The notes: generated by a model from the letters alone, not told the origin. A stretch of DNA of 64,000 nucleotides from Candidatus Harrisonbacteria bacterium RIFCSPLOWO2_01_FULL_44_18 (GCA_001817915.1 MHJJ01000014.1:3695-67694), one strand, 5' to 3'; shown: positions 7,434 to 53,884, counted from the first letter of the stretch. Numbers and translations are program-made.

Positions 7434-8717
7434 ATGGCAAATTTTAAAAAAACAATTCTCAAAAATGGGCTTAGGATAGTTTTGGCGCCCCAGGCCGACA
7501 GTTTAACGGTTACGGTTTTAGTTTTGGTTGCCACCGGTTCAAAGTATGAAACCAAAGAGATCAACGGCATTTCTCATTTTTTAGAGCACCTTTGTTTTAA
7601 GGGCACGAAAAAGCGGCCAACGGCATTGGCCATCACTTCCGAACTTGACGGCATTGGCTCCGAGTACAACGCTTTTACCGGCGAAGAATACACCGGTTAT
7701 CACGCCAAAGTTGAAGCTCGGCATACCGATAAAATTCTGGACATCATTTCGGATCTTTACGTGAATCCGATTTTTGATCCGGCGGAAATTGAAAAAGAAA
7801 AAGGCGTTATCATTGAAGAACTTAATATGTATGAAGACCTGCCGATGCGCAAAGTTCAGGAAGTTTTTACAGAATTGCTTTACGGCGATCAGCCAGCCGG
7901 CTGGCCAATCGGCGGCCGCAAAGAAATTATTCAAAAGATCGCCCACGACGACATTATCAAATATCGTTCTCGGCACTATGTCGCTAATTCGACAGCCGTG
8001 ATAGTCAGCGGCGGCTTTTCCGCCAAAGGCGGAGAAAAATTGCTGGTTTCAAAAATCGAAAAATCTTTTAAAAACGTACTTATAGGAAAAAAGGGAACTA
8101 AAATAAAAACTCAAATTAACCAAACTAGGCCGGCTGTTTCAATTCAGTATAAGGAATCGGATCAAGCTCATTTAGTTTTGGGTTGCCACGCGTATGATAT
8201 TTTTGATAGGCGCCGTCATGCCTTGATGCTTTTGGCGGATATTTTAGGCGGCGGGATGAGTTCTCGTTTGTTTCAAAGAGTCAGAGAACAAATGGGCGCG
8301 GCTTATTATGTAAAAGCCGATCCGGAATTGCATACCGATCACGGGTATTTCGCGGTTTCCGCCGGAGTGGATAATCAAAAATTATTGCCGGTTATTAAAG
8401 CAATTTTGGAGGAACTGGCAAAGATCGGCCAAGGTTTAATTTCTGATAAAGAATTAAAACGAGCCAAAGACCATTTAAGCGGGGGATTGATAATCGGTTT
8501 GGAGACATCGGACGCGCTGGCGATGTTTTATGGCGGTCAGGAGATTTTTAAACGTGAGTTGATGACTCCGCGGGAATTGTTGAAAAAGATTGATTCCGTC
8601 GCGAAAAAAGAAGTAGTGGCCGCAGCCAAAGACATTTTCCAAAACTCAAAATTGAATTTGGCGCTTATCGGCCCTCACAAGAATTCTAAAGACATTGAAA
8701 AAATTTTGAGATTTTAA
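7434..8717 (+). CDS. M16 family zinc peptidase (insulinase-like)
   Basis: Inverted zinc motif HFLEHLCFKG (HxxEH). Start moved to MANFKK, because the longer ORF overlaps the end of glyQS. Confidence 0.85.
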   Translation: MANFKKTILKNGLRIVLAPQADSLTVTVLVLVATGSKYETKEINGISHFLEHLCFKGTKKRPTALAITSELDGIGSEYNAFTGEEYTGYHAKVEARHTDKILDIISDLYVNPIFDPAEIEKEKGVIIEELNMYEDLPMRKVQEVFTELLYGDQPAGWPIGGRKEIIQKIAHDDIIKYRSRHYVANSTAVIVSGGFSAKGGEKLLVSKIEKSFKNVLIGKKGTKIKTQINQTRPAVSIQYKESDQAHLVLGCHAYDIFDRRRHALMLLADILGGGMSSRLFQRVREQMGAAYYVKADPELHTDHGYFAVSAGVDNQKLLPVIKAILEELAKIGQGLISDKELKRAKDHLSGGLIIGLETSDALAMFYGGQEIFKRELMTPRELLKKIDSVAKKEVVAAAKDIFQNSKLNLALIGPHKNSKDIEKILRF

Positions 8718-8822: not shown

Positions 8823-9848
8823 ATGGATTTTAAAAATTTCGACATTACTTGGGGAGGCCTTTGGCGGGTCTTTTTTATGGTTCTTTTGGTTTGGGCTTTG
8901 TTTATGGCTCGCGACGTTGTCATAGTTTTATTGCTGGCCATAGTTATTTCTTCCGCCCTTGATCCAATCGTGACATTTTTGCAAAAAAAGAAGATCCCGA
9001 GAATTTTGGGAGCGCTGGCGATTTTTATTTTAGTAATTTTCATTCTGGCGTTAATTTTCTACACCATCATTCCAATCGCCCTTTTTGAATTCAATAATTT
9101 ATTGGGCAGTCTTAGCCAAAGAACGGATTCGGTTTTTGAATTCGTTAAAGCCCCCGAGATTTTAGCTACTATCAATACCAGCCTGGAGAGATTGACCGAT
9201 ATCTTGCTAAGCGGCAGCGCTTCCGTCGTTGATATCGCCAGTAAATTTTTGGGAGGATTGGTTTTGCTGATTTCTGTTTTTGTTCTTTCTTTTTATCTTA
9301 CGGTTGACAAAGACGGCGTAGAAAGATTTCTCATCGCGGTTTTGCCAACGGCCTCCGAGTCCAAATTTTTGGATATTTACGCGCAAACTAAAAAGAAAAT
9401 CGGCGATTGGCTGAAGGGGCAAATATTTTTGAGTCTAACTATGGGCGTCGTGGTATTCGCGGGCTTGAAATTGCTGGGCGTAAAGTACAGTTTAGTTTTG
9501 GCTATCTTGGCCGGCGTTTTAGAACTTATTCCGTACGTCGGCCCTATTTTTAGCGGCACGGTCGCGGTTTTGATCGGTTTGACCGATTCATTTGCTTTAG
9601 GTCTTTATGTTCTTTTATTATTCATTGTTATTCAGCAACTTGAAGGCCATGTTTTAGTGCCGGCGGTTACCCGTTTCACCACCAACCTTAATCCCGTCGT
9701 GGTGTTGGTTAGTTTGATGATCGGCGCGAAAATTTTCGGTTTTGTCGGAGTTATTTTAGCCGTGCCATTGGCAGTAATGGCGCAGGAATTTATTGAGGAG
9801 TTGTCTCAGTCAAAGCAGCGCCGCCGAGACTCAAAACTCATTAGATGA
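8823..9848 (+). CDS. AI-2E family transporter (PerM/UPF0118-like permease)
   Basis: 341 aa polytopic membrane protein. ELIPYVGPI and QQLEGHVLVP are motifs typical of the family. Confidence 0.75.
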   Translation: MDFKNFDITWGGLWRVFFMVLLVWALFMARDVVIVLLLAIVISSALDPIVTFLQKKKIPRILGALAIFILVIFILALIFYTIIPIALFEFNNLLGSLSQRTDSVFEFVKAPEILATINTSLERLTDILLSGSASVVDIASKFLGGLVLLISVFVLSFYLTVDKDGVERFLIAVLPTASESKFLDIYAQTKKKIGDWLKGQIFLSLTMGVVVFAGLKLLGVKYSLVLAILAGVLELIPYVGPIFSGTVAVLIGLTDSFALGLYVLLLFIVIQQLEGHVLVPAVTRFTTNLNPVVVLVSLMIGAKIFGFVGVILAVPLAVMAQEFIEELSQSKQRRRDSKLIR

Positions 9849-21424: not shown

Positions 21425-21667
21425 TGGACCTAGCCAGAATCCCCTGCCTGCCGGCAGGCAGGGAACTGGCGTTTCCTCATTGTCCCGACAGCAAAGGTGG
21501 ACCCAAGGAGATTCGAACTCCTGACCTCCACATTGCAAATGTGGCGCTCTAGCCAACTGAGCTATGGGCCCACCTTTACTGTCGTGGATCCTCGACTTCA
21601 TTTTATTATATTTTTTAAAAAAGTGCGTCGGGACAAATGAGGTGTTCTGCCACTGAACTATAGGCCC
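21425..21667 (-). pseudogene. interrupted Ala-type tRNA gene (host of the nested tRNA-Ala; also has a T-loop palindrome)
   Basis: Minus strand reads GGGCCTA-TA-GTTC-AGTGGCA-GAAC-A-CCTCA-TTTG, then a 151-nt insert, then CAA-TGAGG-AAAC-GCCAG-TTC, then a 21-22-nt palindrome, then GATT-CTGGC-TAGGTCC-A. G3:U70 is present. Confidence 0.6.
21498..21571 (-). tRNA. tRNA-Ala(UGC)
   Basis: GGGCCCA-TA-GCTC-AGTTGGCTA-GAGC-G-CCACA-TTTGCAA-TGTGG-AGGTC-AGGAG-TTCGAAT-CTCCT-TGGGTCC-A, with G3:U70. Confidence 0.9.
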
Positions 21668-21735
21668 GCCCACTTGATTTATATTATTCGATTGTTTGGA
21701 TTTTCGCCAGACTTTGTTTGCCAATAAAATCTAAC

Positions 21736-21766
21736 GGTTCAACGCGTTGAACCATTAGAGTTTTTT
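21736..21766. terminator. palindromic hairpin ggttcaacgcgttgaacc with a T-run (possible bidirectional terminator)
   Basis: Perfect 18-bp palindrome, followed by tttttt on the plus strand. Confidence 0.4.
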
Positions 21767-21890
21767 GATTCCTCAACATAATATTTATATTTCTAAACTA
21801 GTTATGCGCGGCATAAAGGAACCGGCGTCAAATACTTCGGGCTTCGGCGAGGCGAAGCTTGCTTACGCTAAAGCTTTGACGAAGCGAATG

Positions 21891-21977
21891 CGGAGACGGG
21901 AGGATTCGAACCTCCGATGCCCTTTCGGGCATACCGCATTTCGAGTGCGGCCCATTCAACCACTCTGGCACGTCTCC
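21891..21977 (-). tRNA. tRNA-Ser(CGA)
   Basis: GGAGACG...CCGCA-CTCGAAA-TGCGG, long variable arm TATGCCCGAAAGGGCATC, GGAGG-TTCGAAT-CCTCC-CGTCTCC-G. Confidence 0.9.
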
Positions 21978-21979
21978 AA

Positions 21980-22159
21980 TGCCCTCGGGAAGAATCGAAC
22001 CTCCATCCGCGCGTTAGGAGTGCGCTGTTCCCCGCCTGCCATCGCTTGTGCCCCCAGAAAGAATCGAACTCTCATCTTTCCCTTAGGACGGGATTGCTCG
22101 GTCCATTGAGCTATGGGGGCTCAGGCCATGGCGGGCAGTATCCATTGAACTACGAGGGC
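21980..22159 (-). pseudogene. interrupted tRNA-Arg(CCU)-like gene (host of the nested tRNA-Arg)
   Basis: GCCCTCG-TA-GTTC-AATGGATA, then a 108-nt insert (22031-22138), then GAAC-A-GCGCA-CTCCTAA-CGCGC-GGAT-GGAGG-TTCGATT-CTTCC-CGAGGGC-A. Confidence 0.6.
22049..22120 (-). tRNA. tRNA-Arg(CCU)
   Basis: GCCCCCA-TA-GCTC-AATGGACC-GAGC-A-ATCCC-GTCCTAA-GGGAA-AGAT-GAGAG-TTCGATT-CTTTC-TGGGGGC-A. Confidence 0.85.
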
Positions 22160-22167
22160 ACGCAATT

Positions 22168-22196
22168 ATTATATTCGATCTTCGGCAACTTGACAA
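22168..22196 (-). promoter_or_regulatory. sigma70-like promoter TTGTCA-17-TATAAT driving the minus-strand tRNA cluster
   Basis: Minus strand reads TTGTCAagttgccgaagatcgaaTATAAT and ends 8 nt before the first tRNA nucleotide (22159). Its -35 overlaps the plus-strand -35. Confidence 0.6.
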
Positions 22197-23981: not shown

Positions 23982-24464
23982 ATGATCAAAGTCGCGCTTT
24001 TTAATGAAATTTCCCATGAATTAGGCAATACTCTTCTTGTGGATGTCACAAGCAGGATCGTTGAAAGGATTAATAATCTTTTGAGGCAGTTGTCAGTCAA
24101 CGCTCCATATTGGACTATCGGATGTTTCGCGGAGTTTTTGCGGCAGTCCAATAATCATTTAGTTGTTGCTATTGATGGCAAAATTATTGCTGGTATGGGA
24201 ACGGTTATTTTGAGCTATTCTTTAATGGGCCGTCACGCGAGGATCGAGGATGTGATTGTAGATAAACCATATCTCGGTAAGGGTTTGGGTCGAAAAATTG
24301 TCGAGGAATTAATCAGAATCGCCAACAAGGAAGGAGCAAGATGGATTGATTTAACCAGCAATTCTTCGCGAGTCGGGGCACTGAAGCTTTATAGAAGCTT
24401 GGGATTTAAGGATGTGGCGACAAATTGTTTGCGGCTGGCTTTGGGAGAGCAGGATTCGAGCTAG
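23982..24464 (+). CDS. GNAT family N-acetyltransferase
   Basis: The segment IEDVIVDKPYLGKGLGRKIVEELI is the acetyl-CoA binding motif (Q/RxxGxG/A). Start chosen at MIKVALF. The last codons lie in an arm of N4. Confidence 0.8.
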   Translation: MIKVALFNEISHELGNTLLVDVTSRIVERINNLLRQLSVNAPYWTIGCFAEFLRQSNNHLVVAIDGKIIAGMGTVILSYSLMGRHARIEDVIVDKPYLGKGLGRKIVEELIRIANKEGARWIDLTSNSSRVGALKLYRSLGFKDVATNCLRLALGEQDSS

Positions 24465-24713
24465 CATCAATTTAGTGAGCCAATTCCCGCCCATCTTCTT
24501 TGTTACTCGTCGCTTATGTGCCTATTGGCACACTACGCTCCTCGCGCCTTGAATCTGGACAGGAATTGGCTCACCCGAAGGGAAGAGAGAATTTGAGCCA
24601 AGTTCGAGGAACGACGAGGAGGTTGTGCTGGTAAGCACATCGACGAGGAGTGACAAAGAAATTGGCTCAAATTCTCTCTTCTAAATTTGACGCCAGTTCG
24701 AATCCTGCTCTCC
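24444..24713. repeat. compound nested palindrome N4
   Basis: Outer arms ggagagcaggattcgagctagcatcaatttag / ctaaatttgacgccagttcgaatcctgctctcc. Inner arms tgagccaattcc/ggaattggctca and aagagagaatttgagccaa/ttggctcaaattctctctt. Shares about 60 nt with 48682-48751. Confidence 0.9.
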
Positions 24714-24737
24714 TAGAGAAATAACCGCGGTTTCAAA

Positions 24738-25559: not shown

Positions 25560-25595
25560 GGAAGCGTTGCAGAGTGGACGAATGCACCATTTGGC
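25560..25595 (+). pseudogene. orphan 5' half of a Ser-type tRNA
   Basis: GGAAGCG-TT-GCAGAGTGGACGAATGC-A-CCATT... has the acceptor 5' strand and a D-arm very like that of the neighbouring tRNA-Ser. I found no matching 3' half. Confidence 0.5.
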
Positions 25596-25607
25596 TCTAT
25601 TCAAAGC

Positions 25608-25694
25608 GGAGGGTTGGCAGAGTGGTCTAACGCGCCGCACTTGAAATGCGGTTTCCCGGAAACGGGATCACAGGTTCGAATCCTGTACCCTCCG
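25608..25694 (+). tRNA. tRNA-Ser(UGA)
   Basis: GGAGGGT-TG-GCAGAGTGGTCTAACGC-G-CCGCA-CTTGAAA-TGCGG, variable arm TTTCCCGGAAACGGGATC, ACAGG-TTCGAAT-CCTGT-ACCCTCC-G. Confidence 0.9.
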
Positions 25695-25765
25695 CTTTGA
25701 ATAGAAACTTGTCCTCCGAAGGAGGATCCGCCTCCGGTGGAAAATGCGGTATCGCAACCAAAAAG

Positions 25766-26754: not shown

Positions 26755-29373
26755 ATGATTACCAAAGAAACTTTGCGAAAATCTTTTTGGGCTTTGCCGG
26801 TTCACGAGGCGCTTGACGCGCTTGAAACTACTGCCAGCGGGTTGATGCGGGATGAAGCAGAAGAGCGTCTTAGGGTTTTCGGGAAAAACGTTTTAGCCAA
26901 AAGGATAAGAATAACTAAATTAAAAATTCTTGTCAGGCAGTTCGGAAGCCCGCTGATTTTTCTTTTGTTAATTGCCGGCGGCGTTACTTTGTTTTTGAAG
27001 GATTTTAAGGATGCCGGATTTATTCTTGCCGCCGCTTTAATAAACGCGATTTTGGGATTTTATCAAGAAAGCAAAGCCGAGACGGCGTTGGCGCATTTAA
27101 GAACTTACATCAGAGAACGCAATCGCGTATTTAGAGATAATCACGAGATAGAAGTTGATTCCAGCGAATTAGCGCCGGGAGACGTCATCCATTTATCTCA
27201 AGGGGATCGGATACCCGCGGACTGCCGATTAATTTATGTCAACGATTTTGCCGTTGATCAAGCGATTTTAACCGGCGAATCCCTGCCGGTTTCTAAAGAT
27301 ATCAAGCCCGCCAGTTTTCAGGCAGTCCTCGCGGATCAGAATTCAATGGTCTTTAGCGGCACGGTGGCGGTACAGGGGTTTGCCAATGCCGTTGTTTCCG
27401 CTACCGGCAAATACACCGAATTGGGGAAAATCGCCGCTCTAGTCGCGAGGCCGGAAAAGGAACGCACTCCTCTTCGCGAGGCAATAAATAAATTCAGTAT
27501 TAAGGCCAGCATTATTTTGATCGGATTAACGGCCCTGATTTTTTCGCTCGGCGTTTTGACGGGAAGTTCATTGCTGGATATGTTTTTGATTTCGGTGGCG
27601 ATCGTAGTTTCGGCGATACCGGAAGGATTGCCAATCGCGATGACCGTCATTTTGGCGGTAGGCGTGCAAAGATTGGCGTGGAAAAAAGGAATTGTCCGCA
27701 AATTGCTCGCGGCGGAAACAATGGGCAGCACCTCGGTAATTTTGACTGATAAGACCGGCACCTTGACTGAAGCCAAGATGGAACTTTCGGAAATAAAAGT
27801 TTATAAGGAGGACCGCGCGGAAGAGCGGAAAGAAACGATATTAAAACTCGCCATCCTTAATAGCGACGTGGTGATAGAAAATCCCGGCGATTCGCCTTTT
27901 GACTGGGAAATTATTGGCCGGCCGCTGGAGGTGGCGATTGTCAGATCGGCGGCCAAATTTGATATTTTGGCGCCGGATGTTCGTAAGAAAATGAAAGCCG
28001 TCGATTATCTTCCATTTAGTTCCGTAAATAAATTTTCGGCAAACGTTATTCAGCAAGGTTCGAAATATTTACTTAGCGTGTTCGGCGCGCCGGAAATTTT
28101 ATTAAAATTTTCTAATTTGCCCGATAATTCGCGCCGCCAAATTCATAGAGATGTCGACAAGGTCGCCTATGGCGGCGCGAGAGTTTTAGCAGTCGCGACA
28201 AAAGAATTATCGGGCATTGAAGGAGTTTCGCTTCGCCAGAAAGAAATTTTTAAAGATTTGGATTTTTTGGGAACAATGTCTTTTAGGGACCCGATTCGCA
28301 AAGAAGTCAGAGACGCGGTTAATCGGGTCGCTCAAGCCGGTGTCCGCACTTTAATTGTCACGGGAGATCATCGCGGCACCGCGGAGTTTGTAGCTAAAGA
28401 AGTCGGCATTTCTATTGATGGCGATAGTGTCATTGACGGCGCTGAACTTGACGCGCTGAACGATGAAGATCTTAAAAATAGACTTCCGAATTTAAGGATT
28501 GTTTCGCGGGTAAGTCCGGAAGGAAAATTGAGGATAGTTAAAGCGCTTCAGGGGATAGGGGAGATTGTGGCAATGACCGGCGACGGCGTGAATGACGCCC
28601 CAAGTTTAAAGGAAGCTGATATCGGCGTTAGCATGGGTTCGGGCACCGATGTTGCTAAAGATGTATCGGATTTAGTTTTGCTTGACGATAATTTTGAAAC
28701 CATCGTGGAAGCCGTGGCTGAGGGCCGAAGGATTATACAAAATATCAGAAAAGTAATCGTTTATCTGCTTTCAAATGCTTTGGACGGATTGATTTTAATT
28801 GGCGGGTCCTTGCTTATCGGCTTGAGCTTGCCGTTGAACGCGCTGCAGATTCTTTGGGTTAATTTTTTTACCGATAGTTTTCCGGCAATCGCCTTGGCTT
28901 TTGAAAAAAAGATTGACCATTGGGTTGATCGTCCCGCGCCAATCCATAAAGGATTGCTTGACTCGGAAATGAGATTTTTGATTCAAGTGATCGGAGCGCT
29001 CACGAGTGTTTTGCTTTTGGTTTTATACGTTGGCTTGCTTTATTTGGGTATTGAAGAAAAATTGGTTCACACTTTTATCTTTGCCGCCTTTGGGACATAC
29101 AGTTTGTTTTTGGTTTTCGCGGTTCGAAGTTTGAGACGGAGTATTTTCACTTATAATCCTTTTTCAAACCCCGCGCTTTTGGGAAGCGTGATTTTAGGAT
29201 TGGGATTAATGGCGATCGCGATTTACGTTCCTTTTCTCCAAAAATTATTCGGCACCATGCCCTTGCCGTTAAACTGGCTCTGGGGCATCGTGGGTTTGGG
29301 AATTTTGAATGTCTTCGCGATTGAGTTTGGAAAGTGGGTTTTTAGAAAAAAACAACTAACAACTAACAACTAA
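26755..29373 (+). CDS. cation-transporting P-type ATPase (type II, Ca2+/Mg2+-like)
   Basis: 872 aa. The DKTGTLT phosphorylation site, TGES, TGDGVNDAPSLK and about 10 TM segments are present. Confidence 0.9.
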   Translation: MITKETLRKSFWALPVHEALDALETTASGLMRDEAEERLRVFGKNVLAKRIRITKLKILVRQFGSPLIFLLLIAGGVTLFLKDFKDAGFILAAALINAILGFYQESKAETALAHLRTYIRERNRVFRDNHEIEVDSSELAPGDVIHLSQGDRIPADCRLIYVNDFAVDQAILTGESLPVSKDIKPASFQAVLADQNSMVFSGTVAVQGFANAVVSATGKYTELGKIAALVARPEKERTPLREAINKFSIKASIILIGLTALIFSLGVLTGSSLLDMFLISVAIVVSAIPEGLPIAMTVILAVGVQRLAWKKGIVRKLLAAETMGSTSVILTDKTGTLTEAKMELSEIKVYKEDRAEERKETILKLAILNSDVVIENPGDSPFDWEIIGRPLEVAIVRSAAKFDILAPDVRKKMKAVDYLPFSSVNKFSANVIQQGSKYLLSVFGAPEILLKFSNLPDNSRRQIHRDVDKVAYGGARVLAVATKELSGIEGVSLRQKEIFKDLDFLGTMSFRDPIRKEVRDAVNRVAQAGVRTLIVTGDHRGTAEFVAKEVGISIDGDSVIDGAELDALNDEDLKNRLPNLRIVSRVSPEGKLRIVKALQGIGEIVAMTGDGVNDAPSLKEADIGVSMGSGTDVAKDVSDLVLLDDNFETIVEAVAEGRRIIQNIRKVIVYLLSNALDGLILIGGSLLIGLSLPLNALQILWVNFFTDSFPAIALAFEKKIDHWVDRPAPIHKGLLDSEMRFLIQVIGALTSVLLLVLYVGLLYLGIEEKLVHTFIFAAFGTYSLFLVFAVRSLRRSIFTYNPFSNPALLGSVILGLGLMAIAIYVPFLQKLFGTMPLPLNWLWGIVGLGILNVFAIEFGKWVFRKKQLTTNN

Positions 29374-29457
29374 CAACTAACAACTAACAACTAACAACTA
29401 ACAACTAACAACTAACAACTAACAACTAACAACTAACAACTAACAACTAACAACTAA
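29353..29457. repeat. heptanucleotide tandem repeat (CAACTAA)x15
   Basis: 105 bp of perfect repeat. It overlaps the last 21 nt of the ATPase CDS and abuts the stop codon of comF. Confidence 0.95.
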
Positions 29458-30167: not shown

Positions 30168-30169
30168 AA

Positions 30170-30329
30170 GACCTCTTGCTTAATAATTTTTCGTTACGAA
30201 ATGGATAAATTTGAGGCGAAACAAAGCGAAAATTTCGAGGCATATACAAGAGTATCTGTCGAGAAATTTTCGCAAAGTTGTAGCCCAAATTTATACATTG
30301 CAGTAGAAAAGGTTATTACGCAAGAGGTC
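30170..30329. repeat. compound nested palindrome N6
   Basis: Outer arms gacctcttgc / gcaagaggtc. Inner arms gcgaaaatttcgag / tcgagaaattttcgc. Confidence 0.75.
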
Positions 30330-30390
30330 TATATTCTGGTATACTAAAGCTAGATTGTCGTTAAGGCAAATTCACTGAACTAAGAACTAA

Positions 30391-31470: not shown

Positions 31471-31612
31471 CGAAGTAATCGCGAACAACGCGAATCTATG
31501 CAAAATAATGCTAATAATTTATTCGCGTTATTTCGAATCAGATTAGCATTATTCGCGATTACTCCGATTCGTGTTATTTTGAAACAAATTAGCATTATTC
31601 GCGATTACTCCG
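31471..31612. repeat. pilus-operon junction repeat, copy 1 (stop of pilM to start of pilN)
   Basis: Starts cgaagtaatcgcgaacaacgcgaa immediately after the TAA and ends attagcattattcgcgattactccg immediately before the ATG. Confidence 0.9.
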
Positions 31613-32146
31613 ATGAATCAAAATCTTGTTGATAAATTTGAAACGGAAAGATTGCCGACCGGGTGGCCATGGCGGTTATTTTTGTTCAGTTTTTTGCTTT
31701 TCGCGGCGACGGTCGTCAGTTATTTTGGTTTGTCATTGGGCTATAAGCCGTTTTTAAACAGGCAAATTGCCGGAAAGGAAGCGGAAGTTAATCAATTGGC
31801 GGCGGCCGTTCCCGAAGCCGAGCAGGAAAATTTTATTAGATTTTATTCTCAATTGGCGAATTTGGAGAAAGTCTTAAACAACCATGTTGTTTCTTCCGCC
31901 CTCTTTCCATTTTTAGAAAGAAATACCAACGTCCAGATATATTACAATATCTTGGATTTCAGCGCTTCGGAGAAGAGATTGACTTTGGATGGCGTTGCTC
32001 AAAACTACGATATTTTAGCGCAGCAGCTCGAGGCTTTCACTCAAGCTAAAGAGGTTGAGCGGTTTTTAATCAATGAATCGCAATTAAGCGAAGGAAAAAT
32101 AAGATTTCGGGTATCGCTATTTTTAGCGCCGCAAGTATTGAGATAA
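31613..32146 (+). CDS. pilN: PilN-like type IV pilus assembly protein
   Basis: 177 aa with a single N-terminal TM segment, located after pilM. Confidence 0.6.
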   Translation: MNQNLVDKFETERLPTGWPWRLFLFSFLLFAATVVSYFGLSLGYKPFLNRQIAGKEAEVNQLAAAVPEAEQENFIRFYSQLANLEKVLNNHVVSSALFPFLERNTNVQIYYNILDFSASEKRLTLDGVAQNYDILAQQLEAFTQAKEVERFLINESQLSEGKIRFRVSLFLAPQVLR

Positions 32147-34966: not shown

Positions 34967-35108
34967 CGAAGTAATCGCGAACAACGCGAACCTATGCAAA
35001 ATAATGCTAATAATTTATTCGCGTTATTTCGAATCAAATTAGCATTATTCACGATTACTCCGATTCGTGTTATTTTGAAACAAATTAGCATTATTCGCGA
35101 TTACTCCG
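34967..35108. repeat. pilus-operon junction repeat, copy 2 (pilB to pilT)
   Basis: More than 90% identical to copy 1 by eye and ends directly at the pilT ATG. Confidence 0.9.
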
Positions 35109-36182
35109 ATGGACGATTACAAACAAAAACTAGATGAATTACTGTTGACTACGGCGAAACAGAACGCTTCGGATCTTCATTTGGCCGTCGGTCGCCGTCC
35201 GACTTTAAGGATTGACGGCGCTTTAGTGCCTTTGCAAAAAGAGACGATATTAACTCCCGAGTCAGCCGAGGGTTTGATCAGCGCCTTTTTAACGCCGGAG
35301 CAAAAGGAAGAATTTCTAAAAAATAAGGAGCACGATCTTTCCTATTCTTTTGAAGACAAAGCCCGGTTTCGCGTCAATGTTTTTTATCAGCGGGGATTTA
35401 TGGCCGCCGCTTTGCGCTTGATACCGGCTCAAATAAGGACAGTCGAAGAACTTAATTTGCCGCCAGTCTTGCACGATTTTACCCGTCTTTCTCAAGGTTT
35501 TGTTTTACTTGTCGGTCCGGCCGGCCACGGCAAATCTACAACGATGGCCGCGCTGGCGGATGAAATCAATCATCAGCGCACCGCTCATATCATTAGCATT
35601 GAAGATCCCATTGAGTATTTATTTTCTCAAGATCGGAGCATTATTTCTCAAAGAGAGGTGAGAAATGATACGCCGGATTTTCACAAAGCGCTCCGTTCTG
35701 TTTTAAGACAAGACCCGGATGTGGTGATAATCGGCGAAATGCGCGACCCGGAGTCAATCTCAACGGCGCTGACGGCCGCCGAAACCGGCCACTTGGTTTT
35801 TTCAACGCTTCATACCAATTCCGCCTCCCAAACGATAGATAGAATTATTGATAGTTTTCCGCCCGCCCAACAGAGCCAGATTACATCTCAATTATCCGCC
35901 ACATTAGTCGGCATTGTTTCTCAACGTTTAATTCCGCGGGTTGACGGCGGCCGTATGCCGGCTTGCGAAGTAATGCTCGTTAATTCGGCGATCAGAAATT
36001 TGATCCGCGAGAGAAAGGCGTATCAAATTGATTTGGTGATTGAAACCAGCATGCAGGAAGGAATGTTAACTCTTAACCGTTCTTTAATCGGTTTGGTGAA
36101 AAAGAGGCAGATTTCAATTGAAAACGCGGAGCTTTATTCATTGAACCCGAGCGAGTTGAGGATATTATTGGAGAGAACATAA
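35109..36182 (+). CDS. pilT: twitching-motility / retraction ATPase PilT
   Basis: 357 aa. Walker A GPAGHGKST and ASDLHL motifs are present. PilT-size hexameric ATPase. Confidence 0.9.
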   Translation: MDDYKQKLDELLLTTAKQNASDLHLAVGRRPTLRIDGALVPLQKETILTPESAEGLISAFLTPEQKEEFLKNKEHDLSYSFEDKARFRVNVFYQRGFMAAALRLIPAQIRTVEELNLPPVLHDFTRLSQGFVLLVGPAGHGKSTTMAALADEINHQRTAHIISIEDPIEYLFSQDRSIISQREVRNDTPDFHKALRSVLRQDPDVVIIGEMRDPESISTALTAAETGHLVFSTLHTNSASQTIDRIIDSFPPAQQSQITSQLSATLVGIVSQRLIPRVDGGRMPACEVMLVNSAIRNLIRERKAYQIDLVIETSMQEGMLTLNRSLIGLVKKRQISIENAELYSLNPSELRILLERT

Positions 36183-36331
36183 CGAAGTAATCGCGAACAA
36201 CGCGAACCTATGCAAAATAATGCGAATACTGTTAACGGAGCAATCGCTAATAATGCGAATTTTGGCAAAATAATGCTAATAATTTATTCGCGTTATTTTG
36301 AATCAGATTAGCATTATTAGCGATTACTTCG
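36183..36331. repeat. pilus-operon junction repeat, copy 3 (pilT to pilC)
   Basis: Has the same termini as copies 1 and 2, with a different internal segment. Confidence 0.9.
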
Positions 36332-48664: not shown

Positions 48665-48681
48665 CGTCAATCCCGCGCCTA

Positions 48682-48751
48682 GGAGAGCAGGATTCGAACT
48701 AGCGTCAAATTTAGAAGAGAGAATTTGAGCCAAGTTCGAATCCTGCTCTCC
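48682..48751. repeat. 19-bp-stem hairpin related to N4 (probable metK terminator)
   Basis: Stem ggagagcaggattcgaact / agttcgaatcctgctctcc. The loop shares sequence with 24444-24713. Confidence 0.85.
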
Positions 48752-48810
48752 TATTATCCGCCTAAATGGCGGATTTTTGTTTTTGAATAAACAAGTTATA
48801 ATTAAACTTA

Positions 48811-51557: not shown

Positions 51558-51623
51558 GCGATGAACAGGGCCCAGCCGTAATTTCAAAACACCCTAACGG
51601 GTGCTTTTTGTTTCAGCAGTCTG

Positions 51624-51698
51624 CGCGGGCGGCCGGATTTGAACCGGTGACCTTCCGCGTGACAGGCGGACGCTCTAACCAGACTGAGCTACGCCCGC
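51624..51698 (-). tRNA. tRNA-Asp(GUC)
   Basis: GCGGGCG-TA-GCTC-AGTCTGGTTA-GAGC-G-TCCGC-CTGTCAC-GCGGA-AGGTC-ACCGG-TTCAAAT-CCGGC-CGCCCGC-G. Flanked by an 11-bp inverted repeat. Confidence 0.88.
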
Positions 51699-53809: not shown

Positions 53810-53884
53810 GGCTGGGTAGCTCAGTGGTAGAGCAGGCGTTTCATAAGCGCCAGGTCGCGAGTTCGATCCTCGCCCCAGCCACCA
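53810..53884 (+). tRNA. tRNA-Met(CAU) elongator type (or Ile2, if the anticodon is modified), CCA encoded
   Basis: GGCTGGG-TA-GCTC-AGTGGTA-GAGC-A-GGCGT-TTCATAA-GCGCC-AGGTC-GCGAG-TTCGATC-CTCGC-CCCAGCC-ACCA. Confidence 0.88.

Follow-up and report, generated by a model that had tools for sequence, protein, structure and literature searches.

Archaeal tRNA genes with introns and the split and tri-split tRNAs of archaea (Thermoproteales, Nanoarchaeum equitans, Caldivirga) are interrupted outside the anticodon loop, including in the D-arm, may have several inserts per gene, and have GC-rich complementary sequences beside the two halves. Archaeal introns have been proposed to move between tRNA genes. 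A locus with similar features was found in a 64-kb stretch of DNA from a groundwater bacterium, Candidatus Harrisonbacteria (Patescibacteria), hereafter called the window. At 21980-22159 on its minus strand, a complete tRNA-Arg(CCU) gene lies within the D-arm of a different tRNA-Arg(CCU) gene. Unlike the archaeal cases, the host is a bacterium and the insert contains a whole cognate tRNA. In addition, empty and decayed versions of such loci point to insertion and replacement at the DNA level, not to obligatory splicing. The original prediction, a note made from the window sequence alone, stated that no described bacterial tRNA-within-tRNA arrangement was known to its author. Our literature searches (nested tRNA, Patescibacteria split tRNA, arm sequences) gave nothing relevant, and the probable invasion and replacement of Patescibacteria tRNA genes by other tRNA genes is apparently undescribed.

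Interrupted tRNA genes that standard annotation misses are also known in this phylum in the form of group I introns (PMC13011429). Group I introns in bacterial tRNAs are ribozymes of 184-894 nucleotides (nt) in the anticodon loop, and a 2026 survey of Patescibacteria tRNA introns found only group I introns, in anticodon loops (PMC13011429). Their 35/36 site in Patescibacteria (PMC13011429) is likewise used by two nests described below, of tRNA-Ala in the window and of tRNA-Val in L018 (sequences compared with the window carry L numbers). For the Arg insert, a group I or group II intron was rejected: it has 108 nt, lies in the D-loop, consists of a tRNA and two 18-nt arms, and had no Rfam intron match at the gathering or E-value threshold. 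A hammerhead-like reading of the arms was rejected on structure and size. A bulge-helix-bulge intron, which has two 3-nt bulges on either side of a 4-bp helix at its junctions, was also rejected. In the Arg nest an unbroken arm helix, with 1x1 mismatches only, rises from the two opposed junctions, and the Ala nest has the same form. Neither EndA nor an RtcB-type ligase was among the ten genes around the Arg nest. In its predicted form, a helix extending from the D-loop, the insert resembles the RNase III-excised intervening sequences (IVS) of fragmented bacterial rRNA.

Mobile elements offer further comparisons. Miniature inverted-repeat transposable elements (MITEs), REP/REPIN sequences, Rickettsia palindromic elements and cyanobacterial small dispersed repeats are, like the Arg insert, tiny and protein-less with terminal inverted complementarity. 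They also resemble it in having dispersed copies without a tRNA, in frame in open reading frames (ORFs) or nested in loops, and they may sit in RNA genes. The insert differs in that its cargo is a tRNA gene and its target the loop of a cognate tRNA gene. Integrative elements and prophages share with it the tRNA target and element sequence that preserves tRNA function. Such elements encode an integrase, extend over kilobases, substitute the 3' part of the gene alone and are bounded by direct att repeats, whereas here the insert is 108 nt, a complete second gene lies inside the first, and no integrase was found within ~5 kb. Direct repeats were not found at the Arg nest junctions, nor a recombinase domain in ten neighbouring proteins. 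As in twintrons and nested mobile elements, an element sits in a copy of its own kind and the order of layers records history, but the layers here alternate tRNA genes and arm helices, which have no catalytic parts of their own.

The nested tRNA-Arg(CCU) locus

The elements of the locus and of its transcription unit are as follows.

22168..22196, minus strand: promoter-like TTGTCA-17-TATAAT (11 of 12 matches), ending 8 nt before the outer gene; one likewise precedes the uninterrupted gene of L190
22139..22159, minus strand: 5' part of the outer tRNA-Arg(CCU), with acceptor 5' strand, nt 8-9, D-stem 5' strand and 8-nt D-loop AAUGGAUA; pairs 7/7 with 21981-21987 and 4/4 with 22027-22030
22121..22138, minus strand: leader arm of the cassette, CTGCCCGCCATGGCCTGA; pairs with the trailer in the minimum free energy fold, and its first 10 nt are near-invariant in 12 nests of other genomes
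22049..22120, minus strand: inner tRNA-Arg(CCU), complete (ARAGORN; Rfam, 55.2 bits)
22031..22048, minus strand: trailer arm of the cassette, CAAGCGATGGCAGGCGGG (minimum free energy fold and alignment of nests)
21980..22030, minus strand: 3' part of the outer tRNA-Arg(CCU), from D-stem 3' strand to discriminator (Rfam partial match, 16.1 bits)
21890..21977, minus strand: tRNA-Ser(CGA), un-nested, placed in the same transcription unit (ARAGORN and Rfam); its L190 orthologue is the outer shell of a Ser-in-Ser nest
21730..21759, minus strand: terminator-like hairpin followed by a T run, 3' of tRNA-Ser(CGA)

On the minus strand the outer gene begins with 21 nt reading GCCCTCG-TA-GTTC-AATGGATA (22159..22139) and resumes with 51 nt reading GAAC-A-GCGCA-CTCCTAA-CGCGC-GGAT-GGAGG-TTCGATT-CTTCC-CGAGGGC-A (22030..21980). 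The 108-nt insert between them (22138..22031) splits the gene between the D-loop and the 3' strand of the D-stem, and has a complete 72-nt tRNA-Arg(CCU) between a leader and a trailer of 18 nt each. At this locus the inner gene alone was called, by ARAGORN at 22048-22120 and by Rfam at 22049-22120. When the insert was deleted in silico, ARAGORN called the joined outer halves as tRNA-Arg(cct). The joined outer sequence folds as a cloverleaf of -27.4 kcal/mol, with a normal 8-nt D-loop and complete pairing of the acceptor (7/7), D (4/4) and T (5/5) stems. Its anticodon stem consists of four pairs and an A31.C39 mismatch, and the same mismatch is present in the presumably working inner tRNAs of the relatives L059 and L119. 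Thus sequence reading, ARAGORN, Rfam and the joined cloverleaf all bear out the prediction of one complete tRNA-Arg(CCU) inside the D-arm of a different one.

The promoter claimed 8 nt upstream was confirmed at 22196..22168, and the tRNA-Ser(CGA) claimed 2 nt beyond the outer gene was confirmed at 21977..21890. From this arrangement, the whole unit is probably co-transcribed. The flanks of the inner tRNA are complementary, as had been proposed, over a longer distance than the 10 nt (8 pairs) first given: the complementarity of leader and trailer spans all 18 nt (14 bp), and this helix is stacked on the inner acceptor stem. The fold of the whole 180 nt has -78.4 kcal/mol and z = -4.1. The inner and outer tRNA-Arg(CCU) are only 72% identical, and the inner one is 94% identical to an un-nested tRNA-Arg(CCU) that precedes tRNA-Ser(CGA) in the Jorgensenbacteria genome L014. 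These identities agree with the earlier view that the locus is not a simple recent duplication.

Recurrence of nests and conservation of arms

Joint Genome Institute (JGI) metagenome contigs were scanned with a pattern consisting of any tRNA T-loop, 30-60 nt, and then the anticodon and T region of tRNA-Arg(CCU). The scan gave at least 119 loci, mostly ordinary tandem tRNAs. Since the pattern demanded an intact outer anticodon loop and T-loop, decayed shells were under-sampled. Among the 119 loci listed, an orphan 3' part of Arg(CCU) lay behind a complete tRNA-Arg(CCU) in at least 27, and in nearly all 27 the acceptor strand and D-arm to match it were present upstream of the inner gene. At least 22 distinct Arg(CCU)-in-Arg(CCU) nests, with several insertion positions, were recognized among these matches. 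The pattern was open to any inner tRNA, and all inner genes of the nests listed were Arg(CCU). A strict pattern, in which both inner and outer genes had to match, gave at least one match (L014) over species-representative genomes.

The nests fall into classes by insertion position. In class 1, to which the window belongs, the insertion follows GGAUA of the D-loop; in class 2 it follows the first two D-loop bases; in the remaining Arg nests it follows GGA or lies inside the D stem. Class 1 arms have the termini CCTGCCCGCC...GGCAGGCGGG in common. Alignment of 12 class 1 nests showed hardly any variation in the first ten pairs of the arms, among which are a U.G pair and a C.A mismatch, while the tRNAs of these nests diverge by 20-30%. 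Two nests (L119 and L122) have three levels, and the outermost shell of L119 is without its 3' half.

Genes also switch position between nests. The outer gene of L082 is 97% identical to the inner gene of L116, and the outer gene of the window is 88% identical to the inner gene of L059. Shells form a decay series, from intact (the Arg and Ala nests of the window) through damaged (L059, L104, L015, L090, L018 and L107) and truncated (L186, L025 and the outermost shell of L119) to a ghost at tRNA-Ser(UGA) of the window. The proteins encoded repeatedly beside the metagenome nests were LepA, a protein like DivIC and one resembling a GTPase. The relatives of this LepA are named Paceibacterota or Nomurabacteria, which indicates that the nest loci are bacterial and Patescibacterial. 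As mobilisers these conserved neighbours were rejected; they represent synteny, not a mobility enzyme.

In L119 (reverse strand, 8600-8680) a further tRNA 5' part (GGGCCTGTGGCGCAATTGG) has a 40-nt hairpin, CCCGCCTCGC...GCGAGGCGGG, in its D-loop, and no recognisable 3' half was found after it at this locus.

Empty sites and orthologous loci

The closest relative found was L190, in which the adjacent 3D-domain protein is 79% identical to that of the window and the gene order (M50 peptidase, 3D gene, divergent promoter) is the same. The tRNA-Arg(CCU) behind the corresponding promoter of L190 is uninterrupted, and its acceptor and D stem are those of the window's outer gene. It scored 53.3 bits with Rfam and is 83% identical to the joined outer sequence; the empty gene that the original prediction proposed to look for in relatives was thereby found. 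The presence of an uninterrupted gene at the same place shows that the outer gene is the resident and that the insertion is specific to the lineage of the window. L190 has a nest of its own in the next gene. On its reverse strand at 1551-1787, tRNA-Ser(CGA) is interrupted at 31/32 by a 152-nt insert that holds a second, different tRNA-Ser(CGA). The insert is clamped by perfect 13-bp arms, CCCCGCACAAAGC/GCTTTGTGCGGGG, which belong to the arm family of the Arg nests L068 and L098. The outer and inner Ser genes are 91% and 72% identical, respectively, to the plain tRNA-Ser(CGA) of the window, and the outer gene has lost part of its D-stem 3' strand.

Different nest states were also seen at the Paceibacteria locus lepA-divIC-grx-tRNA-Arg(CCU), among relatives whose LepA proteins are 84-90% identical. 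A plain un-nested gene is present in L188, L189 and L184. The outermost of the three levels of L122 is orthologous to the intact gene of L188. The cassette of L122 recurs in L186 and L187, with identical arms and an inner gene differing by 2 nt, in a different outer gene whose 3' half is deleted. Relatives identified through the downstream HtrA gene, at 72-74% identity, did not keep the tRNA cluster beside HtrA.

The filled and empty sites allowed comparison with MITEs. The arms pair at 14 of 18 positions, which corresponds to terminal inverted repeats, but no target-site duplication was found in three filled/empty comparisons (window and L190, L096 and L079, L156 and L182), in each of which the insertion was exact. 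The absence of target-site duplication argues against classical MITE transposition. Hence, of the "MITE-like tRNA cassette" put forward earlier, the protein-less cassette is favoured, and the MITE label serves as an analogy only.

In L186 (6790-7120), the D-arm double hairpin of the outermost shell of L122 recurs as an interruption in the 5' part of another tRNA (GCCTAGATAGCTCAG), and an ORF for an 88-aa GIY-YIG endonuclease follows directly.

Nests of other tRNA identities

For those tRNA genes of the window that have leader-trailer helices (listed below), the flanks were compared with the tRNAs themselves. Two further cases, of tRNA-Ala(UGC) and tRNA-Ser(UGA), were found in this way.

21634..21667, minus strand: 5' part of the outer tRNA-Ala(UGC), to anticodon base 35; the joined outer gene is tRNA-Ala(tgc) by ARAGORN
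21483..21633, minus strand: 151-nt insert at anticodon 35/36 with the inner tRNA-Ala(UGC), 21496-21571; clamps TCCCGAC/GTCGGGA and CGACAGTAAAGGT/ACCTTTGCTGTCG
21463..21482, minus strand: outer tRNA-Ala(UGC), from anticodon base 36 to C56 of the T-loop
21442..21462, minus strand: 21-nt palindromic hairpin CCTGCCTGCCGGCAGGCAGGG without a tRNA, in the outer Ala T-loop, of the arm family of the Arg cassette
21425..21441, minus strand: outer tRNA-Ala(UGC), rest of T arm and acceptor 3' strand
25560..25753, plus strand: tRNA-Ser(UGA), a third and older case; gene at 25608-25695, perfect 12-bp arms at 25596-25607 and 25694-25705

The tRNA-Ala(UGC) thus sits in a second complete tRNA-Ala(UGC), at 21667..21425. 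With both inserts removed, the outer gene forms a perfect cloverleaf of -27.8 kcal/mol; removal of the T-loop hairpin was required for ARAGORN to call it. Around tRNA-Ser(UGA), remnants of a decayed cognate shell were detected at 25560-25588 (27 similar nt) and 25742-25753 (12 nt). In 200 shuffles the upstream similarity score was reached by none and the downstream score by a fraction of 0.01.

A nest of tRNA-Val(UAC) was found in L018 (reverse strand, 9019-9199), inserted at 35/36 of a Val-like shell. A shell scan blind to tRNA identity, over 743 tRNAs in 1.3 Mb, returned cognate nests only, namely Arg(CCU), Ser(CGA) in L190 and Val(UAC) in L018. The same architecture is therefore seen with five tRNA identities: Arg(CCU), Ser(CGA), Val(UAC), Ala(UGC) and Ser(UGA). 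In each of the nests found, the inner gene was cognate to the outer.

In the window, leader-trailer helices extend the acceptor stem of tRNA-Ser(UGA) (12 bp, perfect), tRNA-Ala(UGC), tRNA-Asp and one tRNA-Met. Those of tRNA-Asp(GUC) (51623-51698) and tRNA-Met (53810-53884) abut the acceptor stem, with duplex energies of -9.9 and -14.7 kcal/mol, respectively. Flank comparison detected no shell remnants around these two genes. On the plus strand of L018 (9590-9800) there are three copies of the first 13 nt of tRNA-Lys(CUU): the intact gene starts with one, and the other two each head a ~100-nt repeat unit.

Hairpins of the arm family without a tRNA

Many IMG/VR contigs have the arm motif as hairpins of 27-42 nt that enclose no tRNA, and some of these contigs have several copies. 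Hairpins with the arm termini were located in L160, L165, L171, L175, L169, L172 and L167, and in L156 and L177 as compared with L182. Some lie in frame in ORFs of ~500 aa, and their presence or absence varies between related contigs. A 27-nt in-frame hairpin encodes PARQGLAGG or LPAEAWQAG, and L165 has two of them and its relatives one. One hairpin copy was found in the loop of another. GC-rich imperfect palindromes are multiple in some IMG/VR contigs, several of them intragenic; the window holds one palindrome of the arm family without a tRNA. REP/REPIN families, by comparison, comprise many extragenic GC-rich palindromes per genome and one RAYT transposase gene. Rfam gave no family on the contigs that bear these hairpins. 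Candidate cassettes with a tRNA in viral contigs were rejected as GC-rich chance matches, and a short-gap scan gave hairpins without a tRNA.

Within tRNA genes these hairpins were seen only in outer shells: in the Ala T-loop of the window, at position 9/10 of L096 and in L122. The 9/10 hairpin of L096 is absent from its relative L079. In an in-silico deletion scan, such a hairpin was not found to interrupt any tRNA gene that is otherwise single. The scan became usable after exons overlapping called tRNAs were excluded; before that, shifted controls gave as many hits as the real set, owing to tandem-tRNA chimeras. Residual non-Arg matches were rejected as antisense or high-GC artefacts.

Proposed mechanism and alternatives

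We consider it rather probable that a protein-less mobile cassette, consisting of GC-rich arms and a tRNA cargo, lands in a loop of a cognate tRNA gene and replaces that gene. In the window, the 108-nt cassette would have entered the D-loop region of the resident tRNA-Arg(CCU) without duplicating the target. From the resident promoter, a single RNA would then run through the outer 5' part, the leader arm, the inner tRNA, the trailer arm and the outer 3' part and on through tRNA-Ser(CGA). The arm helix would stack on the inner acceptor stem and insulate the inner cloverleaf from its homologous surroundings, and a role as folding insulator or processing stem is plausible. RNase P and a 3' nuclease would release the inner tRNA, which would take over AGG decoding and is presumably the working gene. 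The outer halves would be a left-over shell, still intact in the window because the event was recent. Later, shells would decay, gather small hairpin insertions or be re-invaded, giving Russian-doll genes. Selection is the simplest explanation of the cognate rule: where an insertion destroys a tRNA gene, it would be retained only when it supplies that same tRNA. No recombinase, transposase or endonuclease gene was found within ~5 kb of the window's nests (ten neighbouring proteins), and no transposase near any nest examined.

Replacement by a cassette, one of the options in the original prediction, is the best supported reading. It fits the empty sites such as that of L190, the sharing of one cassette between different outer genes, the position switching, the conserved termini, the cognate rule, the decay series and the hairpins in shells. 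Several comparisons nevertheless weigh against it. Between L040 and L116 the nest is 87% identical, compared with 79% for the neighbour protein and 72% for the coding DNA, and the 11 differences between the outer genes, of which 10 lie in stems, all preserve pairing. Between L079 and L096 the nest is 99.4% identical, compared with 85.6% for the neighbouring coding DNA, and the sole substitution is a compensatory change of pair 6:67 in the outer acceptor stem. Judged from these alignments, both pairs look like purifying selection on the outer gene after nesting; both could also have arisen free of selection if resident genes were invaded independently, if they were co-converted during homing, or if the inner copy converted the outer one. 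In L069 and L068 the anticodon and T arms of the inner gene are identical to those of the outer. In the 12 class 1 nests, drawn from a scan biased to intact outer genes, base pairing is as complete in the outer cloverleaf as in the inner one (acceptor 100%, T 100%, D 96%), and its covariation was reached by 0 of 500 shuffles.

The same comparisons would favour a reading in which the insert is an intervening sequence of the RNA and both tRNAs function, a possibility that we hold to be unlikely but not negligible. Arm helix and inner tRNA would be cut out of the outer precursor, and the inner tRNA would again be freed by RNase P and a 3' nuclease. The outer halves might be held together by the GC-rich arm helix, the acceptor stem and the D stem as a two-piece tRNA, or might be re-joined by an endonuclease/ligase pair that recognises the conserved base of the arms. 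In favour of this, the arm-base sequence is conserved beyond the needs of pairing, the class 1 and class 2 sites lie in length-variable parts of the D-loop, and the outer gene of the window retains A20, C35, U36 and A73, which we take from E. coli to be identity elements for arginyl-tRNA synthetase. Bacteria are known to use unligated RNA pieces, as in rRNAs fragmented by IVS excision and two-piece transfer-messenger RNAs. An RNA-level process, however, gives no reason for the inner gene to be always cognate. Close relatives have empty sites, and outer genes are truncated or damaged in several lineages. Other shells have inserts at 9/10, in the D stem, at anticodon 35/36 or in the T-loop, which would be fatal unless spliced, and we know of no bacterial tRNA splicing system for such sites. 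The 180-nt fold contains no bulge-helix-bulge, and the good pairing of outer genes comes from a sample biased to intact outer 3' halves. For the suggestion of an intron excised by RNase P/Z that leaves a split outer tRNA, the pair-preserving changes in some outer tRNAs are favourable, and the comparative evidence as a whole fits the replacing cassette best. A local accident, in which paralogous tRNA-Arg(CCU) copies duplicated or recombined aberrantly and then decayed with no mobile element involved, appears very improbable. It could account for the identical inner and outer anticodon and T arms of L069, L068 and L060 and for a plain partial 3' duplication of tRNA-Arg(CCU) in L080. It does not agree with the low inner/outer identity in the window and the resemblance of the inner gene to the Jorgensenbacteria tRNA, the exact junctions that restore an outer gene of normal length, or the repetition of the architecture for five identities. 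The recurrence of nests in unrelated contigs with common arms likewise disfavours the decay after aberrant recombination that had been offered as an option. Collapsed or chimeric tRNA paralogues in the assembly can be practically dismissed, even though four assemblies of the same strain (L002, L004, L007 and L008) break within the tRNA cluster. The 180-nt Arg nest is identical in four independent assemblies, from different samples and assemblers, which meets the concern about misassembly raised earlier, and the 243-nt Ala nest is identical in six assemblies. In assembly L001 the tRNA cluster differs at one base, 21545 (G to T, position 27 of the inner tRNA-Ala), and the other 807 compared bases are identical. 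The arms are unique sequence, not tRNA k-mers, and analogous nests occur in dozens of unrelated contigs from metagenomes and metagenome-assembled genomes.

If replacement by a cassette is correct, tRNA genes of Patescibacteria, a major phylum that has been little studied, turn over by a previously undescribed route, in which a tiny cassette replaces the cognate gene and layered shells keep a record of the replacement history. It would also show, in present-day bacteria, how tRNA genes are disrupted by mobile elements, as long discussed for the split and intron-bearing tRNAs of archaea. Horizontal spread of tRNA variants would be a further consequence; the inner gene of the window is closest to that of another candidate lineage, Jorgensenbacteria. 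Escape from tRNA-targeting nucleases as the driver is speculation. ARAGORN and Rfam are blind to outer genes and shells, and the Ala nest was found by hand only. If instead both tRNAs are functional, the locus would represent the first split or protein-spliced tRNA in Bacteria. It is doubtful, but conceivable, that Patescibacteria cope at the RNA level with GC-clamped inserts in structured RNA, by two-piece tRNAs or a cut-and-rejoin activity. Unexplained insertions have been reported in the rRNA genes of the phylum, and such coping could account for them.

Other features of the window

At 24442-24716 and 48680-48753 there are inverted copies of a ~30-nt segment that resembles a tRNA 3' end (...GTTCGAATCCTGCTCTCCTA). 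The copy at 48680-48753 is a 32-nt palindrome pair, and related pieces flank 24475-24716. A dispersed repeat of ~150 nt, beginning with CGAAGTAATCGCGAACAACGCGAA, occurs three times (31471-31614, 34967-35110 and 36180-36331); it resembles a MITE and contains inverted repeats and a tandem duplication of 46 nt. A long imperfect palindrome at 30169-30330 has 79-nt arms, 72% complementary, around a 4-nt centre. At 29351-29457, 15 perfect copies of AACAACT begin in the last bases of a P-type ATPase ORF (ending at 29373) and extend beyond it. Four shorter perfect 7-mer arrays are located at 1157, 50187, 55063 and 56559.

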